Part shown: piece after piece, positions 1,171 to 6,544 of the stretch | Layout: every line of letters begins with the position of its first letter | Numbering within the stretch: position 1 is the stretch's first letter | NCBI GenBank assembly: GCA_037146575.1 | Contig: JBAWWV010000209.1 | Location: 1-6,544 of the forward strand | Reading direction: 5' to 3' | Length of the DNA: 6,544 bases | Origin: Alcaligenaceae bacterium | Lineage (GTDB): Bacteria; Pseudomonadota; Gammaproteobacteria; Burkholderiales; Burkholderiaceae_B | Made by a program: the position numbers and the translations under genes | Notes under the pieces: model-generated | The model's input: only the letters and a program-made list of their open reading frames with translations | Database searches by the model: none | What the model was told of the DNA's origin: nothing

Positions 1171-1184
1171 ATTACAGAATGGCT
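1167..1184. terminator. Perfect 7-bp hairpin (AGCCATT-ACAG-AATGGCT) between convergent genes; possible weak bidirectional terminator or IS110 end structure
   Basis: AGCCATT (1167-1173) pairs with AATGGCT (1178-1184) around loop ACAG. It sits in the 48-nt gap between the IS110 transposase stop and the stop codon of the minus-strand orphan ORF, which it overlaps. There is no U-tract on either strand, so this is not a canonical intrinsic terminator. Confidence 0.25.
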
Positions 1185-1612
1185 GGAATCGAGTATTTAA
1201 GTTCTACGATTTTCTTGAACACACCATTCTCCTCAAACAAATAATCATCTACAAGAAATACTTTGTTATCCTCGAATAGAAGCGAGTAATCAACATTTGG
1301 ACTGAATAAGACCACTCTACAAGCACTGCAAACTGCTGCGCACCCGAATGCAGATGATAGTGCTGCCGCTGTATGTTCAGTAAACAGTTGCTCTAACCCC
1401 GTCTTTTCCTGATGGACAGATAAGCCGAAACAAAACTCACCTTGATTGTCATCGTTGAATTCTTGGTATTGATAAATCAAAGGTTCATTCTTTACGCTTC
1501 CCCAGTCATTAACCCCCTCATAGATGAGTGAGAAAGGTTTTATCTGGGAATGGTTTTTCAAAAACGAATCCAATTCTGGAAATGGCAAACGCTTATTGAT
1601 GAGAATATCCAT
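1172..1612 (-). CDS. Hypothetical protein, 146 aa, no recognisable family
   Basis: Long ORF in an AT-rich island whose composition differs from both flanks. I prefer the ATG at 1612 (MDILINKRLPFPELD...) over the track start at 1717. The upstream 35 codons lie in GC-richer sequence that includes a stable hairpin, and they read as Pro/Ala/Gly-rich filler. No clear Shine-Dalgarno precedes 1612, so the start is uncertain. The product looks acidic and soluble, with no TM segment or signal peptide. It contains Cys91-x3-Cys95-x2-Cys98. Confidence 0.55.
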   Translation of the reverse strand: MDILINKRLPFPELDSFLKNHSQIKPFSLIYEGVNDWGSVKNEPLIYQYQEFNDDNQGEFCFGLSVHQEKTGLEQLFTEHTAAALSSAFGCAAVCSACRVVLFSPNVDYSLLFEDNKVFLVDDYLFEENGVFKKIVELKYSIPAIL

Positions 1613-1636
1613 CGATATGGCTAACGTTTGACATAA

Positions 1637-1658
1637 GGGGCTTGCGGTAGCAAGTCCC
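1637..1658. other. 9-bp stem-loop GGGGCTTGC-GGTA-GCAAGTCCC
   Basis: GGGGCTTGC (1637-1645) pairs with GCAAGTCCC (1650-1658). One G:T pair is a G:U wobble in a plus-strand RNA and a C/A mismatch in a minus-strand RNA. It lies 25 nt upstream of the preferred start of the orphan ORF on the minus strand. No flanking U-tract. Function unknown. Confidence 0.3.
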
Positions 1659-1800
1659 GCTTGATGGATGGGTTGGACGAAGCCGCTACGCGCAGGAATG
1701 GACTGATGCGGGGCCACGAATTATGCTGCATTTTCATTCTCTCAATCCCGAGGAAATGATTGTGCGATATTTCGTGAGGATAATCCAGCATGAGCCTTGT

Positions 1801-1820
1801 CCAATGAGGTATGAGCCTGA
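1801..1820 (+). repeat. IRL, outer copy, of the rve-type IS
   Basis: CCAATGAGGTATGAGCCTGA. It is repeated directly 35 nt inward as CCAGTGAGGTAAGAGCCTGAAGG (1836-1858). The 17-nt core of that inner copy, AGGTAAGAGCCTGAAGG (1842-1858), matches the reverse complement of 3403-3419 at 16 of 17 positions. A partial third copy ATGAGCCTTG lies at 1790-1799. Confidence 0.75.
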
Positions 1821-1914
1821 GTGAGGGACGTGATTCCAGTGAGGTAAGAGCCTGAAGGTACGAATCTGGGGTCAAAGTTGAAGAGGGTTGATCATTGCCA
1901 GGATGGTGATCAAC

Positions 1915-3174
1915 ATGAACGAAGCACGACTGTGTACTATTGAGCAGATTGAGCAATTTCTCGGCGGCAGTGTGCAAGTCGAGTTTTCAGGAACGGGGGA
2001 CGACGGCGAACGTTATGCGCATATCAGTCGAGTGCTCAAGCGCTTGGACTACCCACAGCGCAACAAACGGGAACGAGGCGTGCTGCTGAGGTACCTGAGG
2101 CACACCAGCGGATATAGCCGAGCGCAGGTGACCCGTCTGGTGACCCGGTGGGGTCGCAACCGTTTGGCCGAAACGCCCCTGTCCAAGCGGTATTGTGCGC
2201 CGGTGGCACCTTTTGCGCGCAAGTACACGTCTGGCGATATCGAACGACTCGTCGAGATGGACAAAGCCCATGAGGACGTCTGCGGGCCGGCCATTGCACA
2301 CCTCCTACGGCGAGCCTACCGCGACTACGACGATCCGCGCTATGAACGACTGGCTACCTTGTCCGTCTCGCACCTGTATAACCTACGCAAGAGCGCAGGT
2401 TATCTGGATCAGCGCAAGAACGTTACCAAGACTCGCCCGGTCTGCAATGCCATCGGCGTGCGCAAGGCCCCGGGCCCCGAGGGACGCGCCGGCTTTGTGC
2501 GCATTGATACTGTCCATCAAGGCGATCAAGATGGGGTCAAAGGCGTGTATCACATCACCTGCGTGGATACCGTGAGCCAGTGGCAGGTCGAAGCCTGCGT
2601 ACAAGGGATCAGCGAGGTCTTCTTGTTGCCGGTACTGGCGCTGATCATGGCGCAGTTTCCGTTTGTGATTCTCGGCTTTCATTCCGACAATGGCTCCGAA
2701 TTCATCAACAAAAAGGTTGCTGCGTTGCTTGAGAAACTGCGCATCGAACAAACCAAGTCACGTTCGCGCCACAGCAACGACAACGCCCTGGCCGAAAGCA
2801 AGAATGCCAGCGTGGTACGCAAGCACATGGGTTACGCTCATATTCCGCAGCAGTATGCCCAACCCATCAATGCGTTCTATCAGGAGGTATTCAATCCCTG
2901 GCTCAACCTGCACCGTCCGTGCCTGTTTGCGACCGAGGTCGTCAGCCCCAAGGGCAAGATCGTCAAGCGCTATCCGTATGAGAATGTAAAAACGCCGCTG
3001 GAGTGCTTGGAGCAGCTGTGCGCAAAGAAACTTGTCGTACTCAAACCGGACATTACGTTAGCAGCGTTACAGGCACAGGCGCATTCGCAGACCGACCTGG
3101 CGGCAGCTCAAACCATGCAACAAGCCAAGCGAATACTCTTCACCCGCTTTGTAAAACCCAAGCGCCGGGCCTGA
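1915..3174 (+). CDS. DDE-type transposase/integrase (rve, retroviral-integrase fold) with N-terminal HTH
   Basis: Catalytic triad seen in the translation: D in FVRIDTVHQGD, D in GFHSDNGSEF, and E in NDNALAESKN, 36 residues after the second D (DD35E-type spacing, PF00665). An HTH-like segment LRYLRHTSGYSRAQVTRLVTRW lies near the N-terminus. The ATG at 1915 (MNEARLCTIEQIEQFL) is preferred because an SD-like GGTGA (1905-1909) sits 5 nt upstream. Alternative starts are ATG 1903 and TTG 1888. Stop is TGA at 3172-3174. A precise IS family (ISNCY/IS481-like) cannot be assigned without a search. Confidence 0.9.
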   Translation: MNEARLCTIEQIEQFLGGSVQVEFSGTGDDGERYAHISRVLKRLDYPQRNKRERGVLLRYLRHTSGYSRAQVTRLVTRWGRNRLAETPLSKRYCAPVAPFARKYTSGDIERLVEMDKAHEDVCGPAIAHLLRRAYRDYDDPRYERLATLSVSHLYNLRKSAGYLDQRKNVTKTRPVCNAIGVRKAPGPEGRAGFVRIDTVHQGDQDGVKGVYHITCVDTVSQWQVEACVQGISEVFLLPVLALIMAQFPFVILGFHSDNGSEFINKKVAALLEKLRIEQTKSRSRHSNDNALAESKNASVVRKHMGYAHIPQQYAQPINAFYQEVFNPWLNLHRPCLFATEVVSPKGKIVKRYPYENVKTPLECLEQLCAKKLVVLKPDITLAALQAQAHSQTDLAAAQTMQQAKRILFTRFVKPKRRA

Positions 3175-3267
3175 CCCCCGTCGGCAGAGGGACTGCCGCG
3201 CTCCGCTTGCCAGACAGACGAATTGCTACGCAATCCGACCGCCCGGAGCCCTGCGGGCAGCAAACCG

Positions 3268-3288
3268 AAAAACCGGCATATTTATGCC
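3268..3288 (-). terminator. Marginal intrinsic-terminator-like hairpin, read on the minus strand
   Basis: The palindrome GGCATA-TT-TATGCC (3275-3288) is effectively a 5-bp stem with a 4-nt loop. On the minus strand it is followed by GG and then TTTTT (plus-strand A-run 3268-3272). It lies inside the IS right arm, where it could block read-through from the phage operon into the IS. The stem is short and AT-rich, so the call is weak. Confidence 0.25.
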
Positions 3289-3360
3289 CAAAATACAGGC
3301 CAAAAATAAATTCACCCAGCCCCTTCGCCGCCAACATCCCTATTCCATTACACTTGCTTC

Positions 3361-3402
3361 TCAACCCGTCAACCCACTTCACAAACTCACCTGCTTCAAC
3401 CC
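3361..3402. repeat. Three copies of TCAACCC in the right subterminal arm of the IS
   Basis: TCAACCC occurs at 3361-3367, 3369-3375 and 3396-3402. Its complement GGGTTGA occurs once in the left arm at 1885-1891, and GTTGAAG occurs at 1877-1883. The left arm is G-rich and the right arm is C-rich, so both arms are G-rich when read inward. This fits inverted arrays of subterminal transposase-binding sites. Confidence 0.5.
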
Positions 3403-3406
3403 CCTT

Positions 3407-3426
3407 CAGGCTCATACCTGAATTGG
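3407..3426 (-). repeat. IRR of the rve-type IS
   Basis: The reverse complement of 3407-3426 is CCAATTCAGGTATGAGCCTGA. It matches IRL with one indel/mismatch near the tip. Confidence 0.75.
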
Positions 3427-3933
3427 AAAATACTTCAACCGATCATCTGTAACCGAAAAACCGTCCGGAAAAACAAAATAGCTGCGCCGCAACAACGGCC
3501 AAAACCATCGAGCATAAACGAACGAAACCAACTCAACATAACGCAAATTATACCGATACAACAAACAAAAATGATTTAAAACATATAATTCACGAACACC
3601 AGGAACACGAACCGAATCACGACGAAGTTGATACAAATCAGGTAAGCGTAAATTACCCTCAATCTCAGCCTTAATACGCTTCAAAATCAAAACATCCGTA
3701 TCAGCCAAAAACGAAACCACCTCATGAAGATCAGCCCAGGCAGATCGACGCCACCTAAATTCAGTGGCAATCCGACGCTCAGGCAAAATCTCATCATCAA
3801 TCAATGACTGTGCATCTTGCATTACCCGAGCATGCTCAAGATAAGGTGAATCATCCTCAAAAGACTCAATCACCTTGCGACGCATCCAATCCAAGTGAAC
3901 CTGAACCTCCAACGAAAAAGGGCGACCGCTCAT
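3412..3933 (-). CDS. ParE/RelE-fold toxin-like protein with an N-terminal RHH (ParD-like) extension, 173 aa; 3' end lies in the IS inverted repeat
   Basis: The ATG at 3933-3931 overlaps the secretin stop TGA (3932-3930) as ATGA. Residues ~59-145 (nt ~3499-3759) read FRWRRSAWADLHEVVSFLAD...PGVRELYVLNHFCLLYRYNLRYVELVSFVYAR. This parallels the ParE pattern y.ls..A..DL..I..Y........G.r......h...Yr......v.i..v.H. I compared it from memory with Caulobacter ParE1 (YRLSRRAKADLDDIWTYSEQ...GYRRCASGSHVVFYRVGVRVEIIRVLHQ). Residues ~5-48 (PFSLEVQ / VHLDWMRRKVIESF / EDDSP / YLEHARVMQDAQSLIDDE) fit a beta-helix-turn-helix RHH layout like ParD/CopG. Confidence that this is a real CDS is high. Confidence in the function is moderate. 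Confidence 0.65.
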   Translation of the reverse strand: MSGRPFSLEVQVHLDWMRRKVIESFEDDSPYLEHARVMQDAQSLIDDEILPERRIATEFRWRRSAWADLHEVVSFLADTDVLILKRIKAEIEGNLRLPDLYQLRRDSVRVPGVRELYVLNHFCLLYRYNLRYVELVSFVYARWFWPLLRRSYFVFPDGFSVTDDRLKYFPIQV

Positions 3934-5183
3934 ATCCGCTGCGCCTGCAAAATCAGCAAAACTTCGCTTTTGCTCTTTTGATGACCCCCAGGCCTCAACC
4001 ACTCAGGCAAAAATGCGGGGCCAATCTTGTCATCGGTATTTTGATCCTGATCCAGGCCACCCAACACCAAAACCTCATCGGCATGCACACCCACAGAGGT
4101 CGACAACTGCCGTTTGATCAAGGTCGGAGAAGTGTTCACCCCGTTTGTCGTCGGGATGAAGTTGGAAATCTGAGAATCAATCTGCAACTCCGCTACATCC
4201 TCACGAATCTGAGGTTTCAAATCAAGAATCACCCCGCTCGGCCGGTATTCAATCGACTGGACTGACTTACCCGTCGAGTCATACTGAATCGCACCAAGCA
4301 CCGGGGTTTCGTTGCCTACAGTCAATCGAGCACTCGAACCCGACTTGACGCGTAAGGTCGGGGTACTCACCACCTTAAACCGGCTATCCGTGCTCAGAAC
4401 ATCAAAAACAACCTGCAAAGATGCCGACTTGAACACCGCGGAATAATCACCGGCAGCAACATTGCTACCGATATTCACGCCAAGTTTGCCACCCAAAAGC
4501 GAAGCAGCAAGACCCAAAGCCGAACGATCATTGCTCGATGTCGACACTTCAAAAATCACCGCTTTTACCAGCAATTCAGCAGCACCTGAATCAATCTGAG
4601 GCAGCAAAGACAACAGCCGTTTGATGTCCTTCTGAGAACCCTTGAACACCAAAACATCAGGCGACTTGTCCATCATCGAATAAACCGAAGTACCCGAATC
4701 AATCGGAGGCTGCTGCGATTGAATGCCCTGCATGCCTTGCTGCTGCTGAATCTGCTGAGGTTGAGCGGATCCGAGTCCACGTTGCAGAGTAAACGAACCA
4801 CCCTTGAACAAAGGGGAAAGAAGATCCACAAGATAAGTCACCGCACGATAATGAGGCTTATAAATGAACTCACCATCCTCAACAGCTTTAAGCTTGTCGA
4901 TCCAGACAACCGAACCCCGCTTGTCTGACGAATAACCACTATGGCGCAAGAGCTCACGCACCTCAGAAACCACAGCCTCACGCGACATATTGCGCAAAGA
5001 CAGGGAAACCTGATCCCGAGCCTGTACCGCATCACGAGTAAAAATCACCTGGTCATGAGCAATCTCACCAAAAACAACCCGGGCCAGTTGCATCAGATCC
5101 ACATCAGTGAACACCACCGAAACATTACCCTCACTGGCAAAAACGCAGGAAGAAAACAAAAACAAAAGGAAAAAACGCCTCAT
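3930..5183 (-). CDS. Filamentous-phage pIV-type outer-membrane secretin (GspD/PulD superfamily), 417 aa
   Basis: Signal peptide MRRFFLLFLFSSCVFA|SEG. The C-terminal secretin domain has characteristic blocks: VKAVIFEVS, FKVVSTPTLRVKSGSSARLTVGNETPV, IEYRPSGVILDLKPQI and VHADEVLVLGGL (PF00263). An SD-like AGGTGG lies 6 nt upstream of ATG 5183. The start overlaps the Zot stop as ATGA (5183-5180). Confidence 0.92.
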   Translation of the reverse strand: MRRFFLLFLFSSCVFASEGNVSVVFTDVDLMQLARVVFGEIAHDQVIFTRDAVQARDQVSLSLRNMSREAVVSEVRELLRHSGYSSDKRGSVVWIDKLKAVEDGEFIYKPHYRAVTYLVDLLSPLFKGGSFTLQRGLGSAQPQQIQQQQGMQGIQSQQPPIDSGTSVYSMMDKSPDVLVFKGSQKDIKRLLSLLPQIDSGAAELLVKAVIFEVSTSSNDRSALGLAASLLGGKLGVNIGSNVAAGDYSAVFKSASLQVVFDVLSTDSRFKVVSTPTLRVKSGSSARLTVGNETPVLGAIQYDSTGKSVQSIEYRPSGVILDLKPQIREDVAELQIDSQISNFIPTTNGVNTSPTLIKRQLSTSVGVHADEVLVLGGLDQDQNTDDKIGPAFLPEWLRPGGHQKSKSEVLLILQAQRI

Positions 5184-6247
5184 GGCTTGCCACCTACCAA
5201 TCTATCGGCCACGTCAGGCCGAGCTTTGCCGCTCCAACTGGTGACCGCTTCACCCGTTGGCAAATAAGATTCAACGGACATACCGGTCAACTTCAACCTA
5301 GGCGGATTCGTCAAAACCCGAGTCTTTTTGCCGTCAGACAACAAAACATAAACCCCTGCCCCTTCAGTCCAATAACCAGCAACACGCCAATCATCAGAAA
5401 CCGAAGAGACGGGCTTATTCACAGCAGATTGAGACACAGATTGAGAAGAAACAGGAACAACTTTCGATTCATCCTTAGGATTTAAAAAACGATAAATCAA
5501 AAAAATAGGAACAAAAAGTAAAACCAAACCAACAGGCAAAACAATACGAAATAAGGCACCTTTTAAAACATTGCCCCTTTGGTCAATATTCTCTTCTTGA
5601 GCATCGGCACCGCCCTCAGATTTTTGGCTATGTGAGGAGTACAAACCGAAGTATTTAAGGTCATAAACCTTAAAAATCTGCCGCAACTGGTCAGAGCGTT
5701 TATCACTACCACCCTGAAAAATGTCAACACGATACCGCTTGCTACTACCTATCGCCGTGGCCTTGGTCATACGATAAGTTTCTTCTATCACCCCCCTAAT
5801 GCTCAGGTTTATATCTCGAACCTGTTGGGTAATGATGGCAACATCACACGTCAAACCAGTTTTCTCATGCGCAAAATGCCGGTGCATGCGGAAAAAATTC
5901 ATGTGCCGACTAGGAATATCCCCCCTCGCCTTCCAAAACCGCCAAATTTCATCTAAGGCAACCAAGTCACCCGGCTGAATAAAAGACTCAAGTCCCCGCT
6001 TAACATCCTCGTCAGTACGAAAAAAATGAGGTTCCAAGACCTGATCATGAGATACAGAAACCAACTCACCAATCTGATCAAACGGAACACCCTCAGACAG
6101 CAACAAACCACGCATCGCATCAAAATTTAGACCTGCAATGTTGCTCACCACACGACGACCACGGCGTAGACCATTGAGGATCACATGAGATACAACCTCA
6201 TAAGTTTTGCCTGCTCCCTGGCGCCCAACATAGGCTTTAATGCTCAT
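5180..6247 (-). CDS. zot: Zot-like phage assembly ATPase (pI homolog), 355 aa
   Basis: Walker A GRQGAGKT at residues 8-15 (nt 6203-6226, checked against the DNA). Walker B-like DLVALDEIW. A single TM helix ALFRIVLPVGLVLLFVPIFLIYRFL lies at about two thirds of the length, followed by a Ser-rich linker and a periplasmic C-domain. This is the Zot/pI architecture (PF05707). The position between the pVI-like gene and the secretin gene agrees. Confidence 0.93.
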   Translation of the reverse strand: MSIKAYVGRQGAGKTYEVVSHVILNGLRRGRRVVSNIAGLNFDAMRGLLLSEGVPFDQIGELVSVSHDQVLEPHFFRTDEDVKRGLESFIQPGDLVALDEIWRFWKARGDIPSRHMNFFRMHRHFAHEKTGLTCDVAIITQQVRDINLSIRGVIEETYRMTKATAIGSSKRYRVDIFQGGSDKRSDQLRQIFKVYDLKYFGLYSSHSQKSEGGADAQEENIDQRGNVLKGALFRIVLPVGLVLLFVPIFLIYRFLNPKDESKVVPVSSQSVSQSAVNKPVSSVSDDWRVAGYWTEGAGVYVLLSDGKKTRVLTNPPRLKLTGMSVESYLPTGEAVTSWSGKARPDVADRLVGGKP

Positions 6248-6253
6248 AATGGC

Positions 6254-6544
6254 TTAACCGATCACAGGTAAACGACGGATCAAAAACCGAGCAACAAACG
6301 CAGAAATCAAAAGCGGCAAGCCAAAACTTATTTGGAAAAAATCGAGGAAATACCAGACACCAGGACTTACCGAAGAAAAAGCACTCGTCAGGCTGGCTAC
6401 ACCAAGGAACGGACCCAGATATGAAACTGCAATAGGTACAAGAAATGCGACTAAAGCCCAAACAGCTGAAAAAACCACGAATTTGATAACAATATCGCGG
6501 AAAATCCACGTAACCAATGGGGCAAGCAGTAGAGGAACAGGCAT
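6254..6544 (-). CDS. Small hydrophobic virion/assembly protein, pVI/Ace-like (DUF2523-like), 96 aa
   Basis: Several predicted hydrophobic helices and a basic C-terminal tail ARFLIRRLPVIG. Size (96 aa) and position directly upstream of zot mirror Ace of CTXphi and pVI of Ff phages. The ATG is the last three bases of the window, so the true start cannot be verified and the ORF could extend off-window. Stop is TAA at 6254-6256, 6 nt before the zot start. Confidence 0.7.
   Translation of the reverse strand: MPVPLLLAPLVTWIFRDIVIKFVVFSAVWALVAFLVPIAVSYLGPFLGVASLTSAFSSVSPGVWYFLDFFQISFGLPLLISAFVARFLIRRLPVIG

Follow-up and report, generated by a model that had tools for sequence, protein, structure and literature searches.

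The locus

This analysis concerns an open reading frame (ORF) in a 6,544-nucleotide stretch of an Alcaligenaceae genome (contig JBAWWV010000209.1 of assembly GCA_037146575.1), which at its full length is called the window below. The ORF lies directly downstream of the secretin gene of a filamentous phage (inovirus), and very probably joins a PaaA2-type antitoxin segment and a ParE toxin in a single chain. Its parts are as follows.

3412-3933, minus strand: fused antitoxin-toxin ORF of 173 amino acids, with ATG at 3933 and stop codon at 3412-3414 (ORF list, sequence)
3793-3909, minus strand: PaaA2-type toxin-neutralising segment, residues 9-47 (antitoxin profile, relatives, profile A2, structural model)
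3763-3792, minus strand: junction or linker, residues 48-57, EILPERRIAT (alignment A1; pLDDT 64-66)
3493-3762, minus strand: ParE-fold toxin domain, residues 58-147 (PDB ParE2, toxin profile, structural model, Foldseek)
3415-3492, minus strand: C-terminal extension, residues 148-173 (pLDDT below 50, predicted disordered, absent from homologues)

An alternative GTG start at 4002 would give a product of 196 amino acids. The first-pass annotation, made by a model from the sequence alone, had already placed a 173-residue ORF after the secretin gene and read it as a ParE toxin preceded by a DNA-binding antitoxin domain. The ORF stands as described, and so does the toxin.

The toxin domain

The C-terminal part of the protein has the ParE fold. 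In a phmmer search, residues 60-149 match ParE2 of Escherichia coli O157 in the PDB (5cw7_B, residues 5-95 of 100) at E=2.8e-8, with an identity of only about 31-33%. A hidden Markov model (HMM) built from 118 homologous toxins, with the window protein excluded, places residues 58-147 on nodes 3-92 of 95 (50 bits, E=1.4e-11 at Z=1e6), and a HMMER scan of 1.84 billion representatives returned eight ParE proteins at E<=1e-3, besides a near-identical fragment (P0001).

The AlphaFold2 (AF2) model has the N-terminal strand, alpha-hairpin and three-stranded antiparallel sheet of a ParE toxin (strand 58-61, helices 63-77 and 81-95, strands 114-118, 122-128 and 132-140; pLDDT 74-91). It was obtained from a curated alignment (A7), the composition of which was tuned as input, and has an overall pLDDT of 73; a single-sequence run was uninformative (pLDDT 38), and the MAFFT alignments A3, A5 and A6, which placed antitoxins on toxin columns, were dropped. 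Foldseek ranks 5cw7_B first (TM-score 0.78 on the target, rmsd 1.9 Å), followed by ParE of Pseudomonas aeruginosa, Mesorhizobium and Mycobacterium tuberculosis. The complete ParE fold that had been read from the letters, including the helices and strands named there, is thus recovered by sequence, profile and structure searches, and the top structural matches are all ParE.

Several other searches were negative. Pfam gives no match on the whole 173-residue protein and NCBIfam no usable match on the whole ORF; Foldseek against BFVD found no significant viral match, and a first attempt at a word-indexed homologue search found none. A PADLOC match of the ORF to LmuC (E=0.0025, 15 bits) was taken as chance.

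The N-terminal segment lacks a DNA-binding domain

The N-terminal part is best understood from its relatives. In 99-residue antitoxins encoded on plasmids, Pfam finds a RelB ribbon-helix-helix (RHH) domain at residues 5-54 (PF04221) and a PaaA2 domain, described as a stability determinant, at 59-86 (PF21217); across the relatives it recognises RelB, PaaA2 and ParE domains. Residues 2-46 of the window protein correspond to residues 46-92 of the 99-residue RelB/DinJ antitoxin of Xanthomonas fragariae at 40% identity, beyond the RHH domain. An antitoxin HMM built without the window protein places residues 9-47 on nodes 55-93 of 99 (31.6 bits, E=6e-6 at Z=1e6). A 71-residue PaaA2-domain protein that passes PF21217 (P0007) is 55% identical to the segment (library-wide E=3.8e-4), and profile A2 of the segment matches the PDB chains of PaaA2 at E~1e-7. 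The AF2 model has two helices here (7-26 and 34-48, pLDDT 85-89), and its first strand starts only at residue 58.

The first-pass annotation had assigned residues ~5-48 to a ParD/CopG-like RHH domain with a strand-helix-loop-helix arrangement, followed by a short linker and ParE. The segment is indeed helical, and NCBIfam gives a weak RelB antitoxin match (E=0.042, residues 15-40) to the C-terminal half of a 45-position profile. However, the aligned residues lie past the RHH domain of the relatives, the RHH columns of their alignment (A1) are empty for the window protein, and the RHH nodes of the antitoxin HMM (1-54) find no counterpart in the 196-residue extension, nor in a six-frame translation of the window. 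The model lacks the N-terminal strand, and Pfam finds neither ParD/CopG (PF01402) nor RelB (PF04221) in the window protein. These four tests (alignment, six-frame HMM, AF2 and Pfam) refute the RHH assignment, which we regard as extremely improbable.

Judged by these alignments, the N-terminal ~55 residues are the toxin-wrapping segment of an antitoxin, and the DNA-binding domain is the part that is missing. We hold the assignment of the fused protein as PaaA2-type segment plus ParE with high confidence. It had seemed puzzling how a short linker between an RHH domain and the toxin could allow neutralisation; this puzzle came from the wrong domain assignment and vanishes, since the N-terminal part is itself the toxin-wrapping segment. 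The earlier observation that no separate antitoxin ORF lies nearby is correct, in that the six frames of the window hold neither a separate antitoxin ORF nor an RHH domain. A PaaR2-like regulator is likewise absent from the window, where 6.5 kb are visible and the 3' side of the ORF has been replaced by an insertion sequence (IS).

The junction and the C-terminal tail

Given that the N-terminal half is a PaaA2 segment and the C-terminal half is ParE, each half has its counterpart in one chain of the solved PaaA2-ParE2 crystal structure (5CW7), and the two are joined here by a linker of about ten residues. In alignment A1 the junction, …LIDDEILPERRIATEFRW…, retains counterparts of the antitoxin tail and of the toxin leader. 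At this position the relatives have two genes, the antitoxin gene running 14 nt into the toxin gene (L001, L003). The window ORF is a fused mono-gene, with an antitoxin domain and a BECR-fold toxin domain in one polypeptide. It is not a canonical type II operon of two genes with antitoxin autoregulation, as it is a single ORF in three assemblies and has no DNA-binding domain.

A spurious insertion or deletion could in principle have joined two true genes. The genes of the relatives overlap in different frames, and an error of one nucleotide would fuse them. There is, however, no homopolymer run at the junction, and the window shares this junction with two MEGAHIT contigs from other European Nucleotide Archive (ENA) samples, one (L009) 100% identical to the window over 3526-6544, so that the ORF is identical over 3526-3933, and the other (L004) identical at 536 of 538 positions over 3435-3972. 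Assembly error is therefore an unlikely source of the fusion, and we give an artefact of assembly or sequencing hardly any weight.

The fusion could also be more apparent than real, if the toxin were made in addition from an internal start near codon 50-55 and the full-length protein served as an antitoxin carrier. Ile55 (ATT) falls at the position of the start Met in homologous toxins (P0002), and there is an in-frame TTG at codon 50. On the other hand, neither codon has a suitably spaced Shine-Dalgarno-like sequence, no promoter-like site is present, and ATT is a very rare start codon. We consider internal initiation quite improbable.

At the other end, homologues stop 0-8 residues past the WP motif, and in the window protein 24-26 further residues follow the normal ParE end. 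The last seven codons (at or below 3435) derive from the IS end; L004 has ...DDWLIA in their place. Directly after the ParE-domain codons, at 3481-3497 on the minus strand, there is a weak GC hairpin with a T-run behind it; such sites occur about as often as expected by chance. The hairpin may once have served as the terminator, which the tail of 24-26 residues would now read through.

Operon context and codon usage

The surroundings of the ORF comprise the following features.

3930-3933, minus strand: ATGA overlap of the pIV stop (TGA) and the fused-ORF start (ATG), ...CAG CGG ATA TGA / ATG AGC GGT
3930-5183, minus strand: pIV secretin gene, directly upstream of the fused ORF (phrog_1012, 5e-84; PF00263)
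5180-6247, minus strand: pI, Zot-like assembly ATPase gene (phrog_197, 2.9e-57; PF05707)
1793-3434, plus strand: IS element adjoining the 3' end of the fused ORF and encoding an rve-type transposase (1888-3174) (inverted repeats; PF00665; homology to L004 ends at 3435)

pI and pIV lie in this order on one strand with overlapping stops and starts, as in inovirus morphogenesis modules. Because the secretin gene is preceded by the Zot-like pI and also by a gene for a DUF2523 protein, the fused ORF is the distal end of an inovirus morphogenesis operon. Both this location and the ATGA arrangement with the secretin gene had been proposed before, and the phrog_1012 and phrog_197 matches and the sequence at 3930-3933 confirm them. 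The overlap is a probable site of translational coupling to pIV. A sequence scan for promoters, terminators and an internal start at the junction found nothing above chance.

The frame of the fused ORF has no stop codons, as against 8 and 23 in the other two frames, and a stop-free frame is expected in about 1e-4 of composition-matched shuffles (the composition is T-rich). At its third codon positions the composition (T 0.51, G 0.32, C 0.06, A 0.10) is close to that of pIV and pI, and its coding strand shares the strong T/G excess of the phage genes. Strand asymmetry of this sort is typical of single-stranded DNA phages. The phage-like T/G excess and the third-position bias argue for long residence of the module, as a translated gene, in this single-stranded DNA phage.

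Between 3300 and 6544 of the window, the coding (minus) strand is T- and G-rich, with an AT skew of up to 0.5 on the plus strand, and the asymmetry over the toxin-antitoxin ORF exceeds that over pIV and pI.

Distribution of the fusion

The fusion was seen in one phage lineage, represented by the window, by L009, where it is intact, and by L004, which carries a nonsense allele. Outside this lineage the protein was not found in any collection searched. No diverged copies were found in GTDB genomes, IMG/VR or JGI metagenomes with a protein pattern and exact 27-mers, and blastn of the phage part against GenBank phages gave no match. Three related inoviruses from IMG/VR have pI proteins 46-53% identical to that of the window, and one has a secretin at 50% identity; none has PaaA2 or ParE in any frame. 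Given the absence from these relatives and the lack of diverged copies, the module is an accessory gene of one phage lineage.

In a tblastn search against plasmids, the ORF matches in two pieces over adjacent RelB/DinJ antitoxin and RelE/ParE toxin genes, as on X. fragariae pPD5205-30, where the gene for the 99-residue antitoxin overlaps the toxin gene by 14 nt. In the homologue comparison proposed in the first-pass annotation, plasmid relatives are thus two overlapping genes, and the fused junction was seen only in the window lineage.

Other single-frame fusions appear, from the sequences found, to be rare, sporadic and independent. One is a 154-residue PaaA2-ParE fusion without RHH and with an 11-12-residue linker, similar in length to that of the window protein (P0006, on contig L008), and independent of the fusion in the window. 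It is the last member of a tandem array at 354-1283 of L008 (Logan SRR20462244), after the genes for a 64-residue PaaA2-like antitoxin and a 95-residue ParE, with overlapping gene boundaries. On plasmid pNS6002 of Actibacterium sp. EMB200-NS6 (L002, 1318-1878), RelB(RHH), PaaA2 and ParE form one 186-residue ORF in a single frame, of which RefSeq gives only the 97-residue toxin part; a strawberry-notch family gene adjoins it.

A possible cis-neutralised toxin in a phage assembly operon

We suspect that the two cistrons of a paaA2-parE2-type type II toxin-antitoxin operon merged into one frame. In this scenario, residues ~48-57 would be the former antitoxin tail and toxin leader, now serving as a linker, and residues 148-173 a disordered read-through tail that was clipped by the IS. 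Ribosomes finishing pIV may reinitiate at the ATGA overlap, in which case the level of the fused protein would follow that of the phage assembly operon. Given that there is no promoter-like site and no operator-binding domain, and that the ORF starts on the pIV stop codon, coupling to pIV is the simplest mode of expression.

The fused gene would not be autoregulated, and the covalent link guarantees one antitoxin to one toxin in the chain without autoregulation. The PaaA2-like helices could cover the ParE surface in cis, or in domain-swapped form in an oligomer, and so keep the toxin silent. Docking in cis is sterically plausible, as 10-12 flexible residues (~35-40 Å when extended) would span the ~30 Å ParE domain. 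By analogy with PaaA2, proteolytic removal of the N-terminal segment by host proteases would be the only route to free toxin. Freed ParE may then poison gyrase or DNA metabolism, and it is conceivable that the module stabilises the phage or prophage or excludes competitors. We infer the coupling, neutralisation in cis, activation by proteases, target and biological role from the arrangement of the gene and from its relatives. A fused protein that is silent and yet can be activated has, in our view, about an even chance of being what the gene encodes, and the reading as a whole (a merged paaA2-parE2-type operon without a DNA-binding domain, functional today) is evenly balanced for us as well.

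A more elaborate version is unlikely, though it would be the most novel. Here a functional single-chain PaaA2-ParE without DNA binding would be co-translated with the secretin and keep its toxin off in cis until proteolysis, or a specific trigger such as superinfection by another phage or episome loss, set the toxin free. The protein would then act as a self-contained addiction or exclusion switch. Covalent 1:1 stoichiometry would replace transcriptional autoregulation, in a manner that may be likened to fused sensors such as CapRel.

The principal alternative is that the ORF is a relic, in which a two-gene RelB/PaaA2-ParE module carried by the phage lost first its RHH domain and then its intercistronic stop through small lesions. 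The product would be inert, through permanent neutralisation, a dead toxin or both, and would be on its way to becoming a pseudogene within a defective prophage riddled with IS elements. We consider this a real possibility, somewhat short of an even chance. Most of what weighs against a working module speaks for decay. L004 has a TCG to TAG change at codon 74 (Ser74 to stop), in the first helix of the toxin, which means that toxin loss is tolerated. Its only other difference in 538 nt is R165W (the two lie at window 3713 and 3441, L004 260 and 532). Both are non-synonymous and suggest, as far as two changes can, that selection on the toxin is relaxed or inactivating. Within 3.4 kb there are two IS elements, one of which clips the 3' end of the ORF without a target duplication; the ORF extends 24 codons beyond the normal ParE end into a disordered tail.

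The toxin domain also departs from its relatives at conserved positions, with, for example, Tyr140 in place of the His of their V-H-A motif. We know of no catalytic residues that can be read from a ParE sequence. The Pfam scores are below threshold. The family named for the toxin by the first-pass annotation (PF05016) reaches 15.3 bits on the toxin domain alone, under the gathering cut-off of 23, so that this check failed in Pfam, while the ParE fold itself was recovered through PDB, profile and structure searches. The N-terminal segment taken alone has no Pfam match, PF21217 included, and phmmer of the N-terminal 58 residues against the PDB gives chance-level matches without reaching PaaA2; the link to solved PaaA2 is made through profiles. 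The distribution is narrow, given the three related inoviruses that lack the module, and the other fusions in the databases are singletons. Two exceed ordinary toxin length among the best 120 of 3282 profile matches, each a singleton on one contig; the fusion P0011 is a frameshift product with an out-of-frame garbage antitoxin tail, and the 186-residue ORF of L002 is listed in RefSeq as its toxin part only.

Against decay stands the frame itself, which runs uninterrupted through 173 codons both in the window and in L009, with a stop-free chance of about 1e-4 in this T-rich composition. The third-position bias is like that of essential phage genes, both domains are complete in comparison with their homologues and confidently modelled, and the start overlaps the pIV stop precisely, as coupling would require.

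Relation to known systems

The best solved-structure match for both halves is PaaA2-ParE2 (PDB 5CW7, 5CZE and 5CZF) of the three-component paaR2-paaA2-parE2 operon in the cryptic prophage CP-933P of E. coli O157:H7. It resembles the window ORF in being phage-borne and in having an antitoxin without a DNA-binding domain. Free PaaA2 is disordered, ClpAP and ClpXP degrade it, and ParE2 induces the SOS response (PMC8630535). PaaA2-ParE2 sits in the prophage regulatory region, and its expression is governed by phage regulation rather than autoregulation (PMC8630535). The two systems differ in that PaaA2 and ParE2 are separate chains encoded in a lambdoid immunity region, whereas the window protein is a single chain encoded in an inovirus assembly operon, with no adjacent PaaR2-like regulator, an extra disordered C-terminal tail and ~31-33% identity to ParE2.

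The closest sequence relatives of both halves are the plasmid pairs of RelB/DinJ(RHH)-PaaA2 antitoxin and RelE/ParE toxin, such as that of X. fragariae pPD5205-30 (WP_002805369/WP_002805372), at 30-36% identity. Their order and orientation are the same as in the window ORF, and the place of the junction is taken in them by the 14-nt gene overlap. They are, however, two genes, and their antitoxin has an N-terminal RHH domain (PF04221), which the window ORF does not.

Fusions of antitoxin and toxin are themselves known. A survey of the RelE/ParE superfamily lists 195 fused genes, including 19 prokaryotic ParD-ParE fusions and one eukaryotic (Gerdes 2025, PMC11980606). Like the window protein, the ParD-ParE fusions have an N-terminal antitoxin domain and a BECR-fold ParE domain in one ORF; the table of that survey counts them without domain detail, and we found no PaaA2 entry in the supplements of PMC11980606.

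Toxin-antitoxin modules are also common in inoviruses, with 15 sets of pairs across 181 genomes (PMC6813254), and roles in retention or exclusion have been proposed for them generally (PMC6813254; for PfiAT, PMC13048266). By analogy, a role of this kind is conceivable for the window module. PfiT/PfiA of the Pseudomonas filamentous phage Pf4 is, like the window ORF, a ParE/RelE-superfamily module on an inovirus, and PfiT has a C-terminal extension (PMC13048266). It differs in consisting of two genes and in having an antitoxin, PfiA, with its own DNA-binding domain. In the PDB sequence search no similarity of PfiT to the window protein was detected (ParE2 was the sole match), and PfiT/PfiA does not appear to be a close relative.

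The proposal of a single-chain antitoxin-toxin fusion at the end of an inovirus operon therefore stands, but its unusualness is weaker than first supposed, as ParD-ParE fusions have been catalogued (PMC11980606) and inovirus modules are common (PMC6813254). Fused toxin-antitoxin genes, antitoxins without DNA binding and inovirus modules are all known, and the window ORF is a modest variant rather than a new kind. What is particular here is an RHH-less PaaA2-type segment fused to ParE as the last, probably translationally coupled, cistron of an assembly operon.

If the protein is active, it would represent a minimal toxin-antitoxin design with no operator binding and no separate antitoxin pool, in which dosage would be set by translational coupling to a phage assembly gene. 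It would offer a simple system for studying how a tethered antitoxin is removed to free ParE, and how a phage with a chronic, non-lytic life cycle might benefit from such a module. If it is inactive, the locus is a snapshot of how phage-borne modules are disarmed, by RHH loss, cistron fusion and nonsense mutation of the toxin. From the perspective of annotation, a ParE domain under the Pfam threshold can be recovered through PDB and profile searches, and helices that look RHH-like in front of a toxin should be compared with the toxin-binding segment of the antitoxin.

Insertion sequences and flanking DNA

The IS end that the first-pass annotation had placed downstream of the ORF was found there, with inverted repeats and with the L004 homology stopping at 3435. 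The repeats are imperfect (~1800-1820 and 3406-3427) and contain TCCAAT..AGGTATGAGCCTGA; at the left end the repeat core occurs twice, at 1800-1820 and 1835-1855. The 428-residue transposase shares 58% identity with an integrase encoded on a Polaromonas plasmid, and the IS region has no near match among plasmids. No target-site duplication is visible at the IS, and the DNA on its far side does not continue the L004 sequence, which suggests an IS-mediated rearrangement.

In L004 the shared sequence stops at the same base (window 3435) and is followed by a convergent IS4-like transposase gene (DDE_Tnp_1; L004 539-1417), so that the window and L004 have different mobile elements bordering on one and the same point. 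The stretch between the two IS elements of the window (1172-1792) is of low GC content (40-46%) and unlike the DNA after the fused ORF in L004; the IS flanks are thus not those of a simple insertion. It carries a 181-residue minus-strand ORF, for which no match was found in Pfam, PHROGs, PADLOC or a plasmid tblastn search.

Further towards the window edge, positions 23-1123 encode an IS110-family transposase (PF01548 and PF02371), the first ~65 residues of which lie beyond that edge. GC content in the IS110 region is ~60%, compared with ~45-50% in the phage part. Within the latter, pIV has a Gln-rich low-complexity stretch, QPQQIQQQQGMQGIQSQQPP, at residues ~140-160 (window ~4700-4760), between its N-terminal and secretin domains, and the 50%-identical IMG/VR secretin has Ala/Gly-rich sequence in its place.

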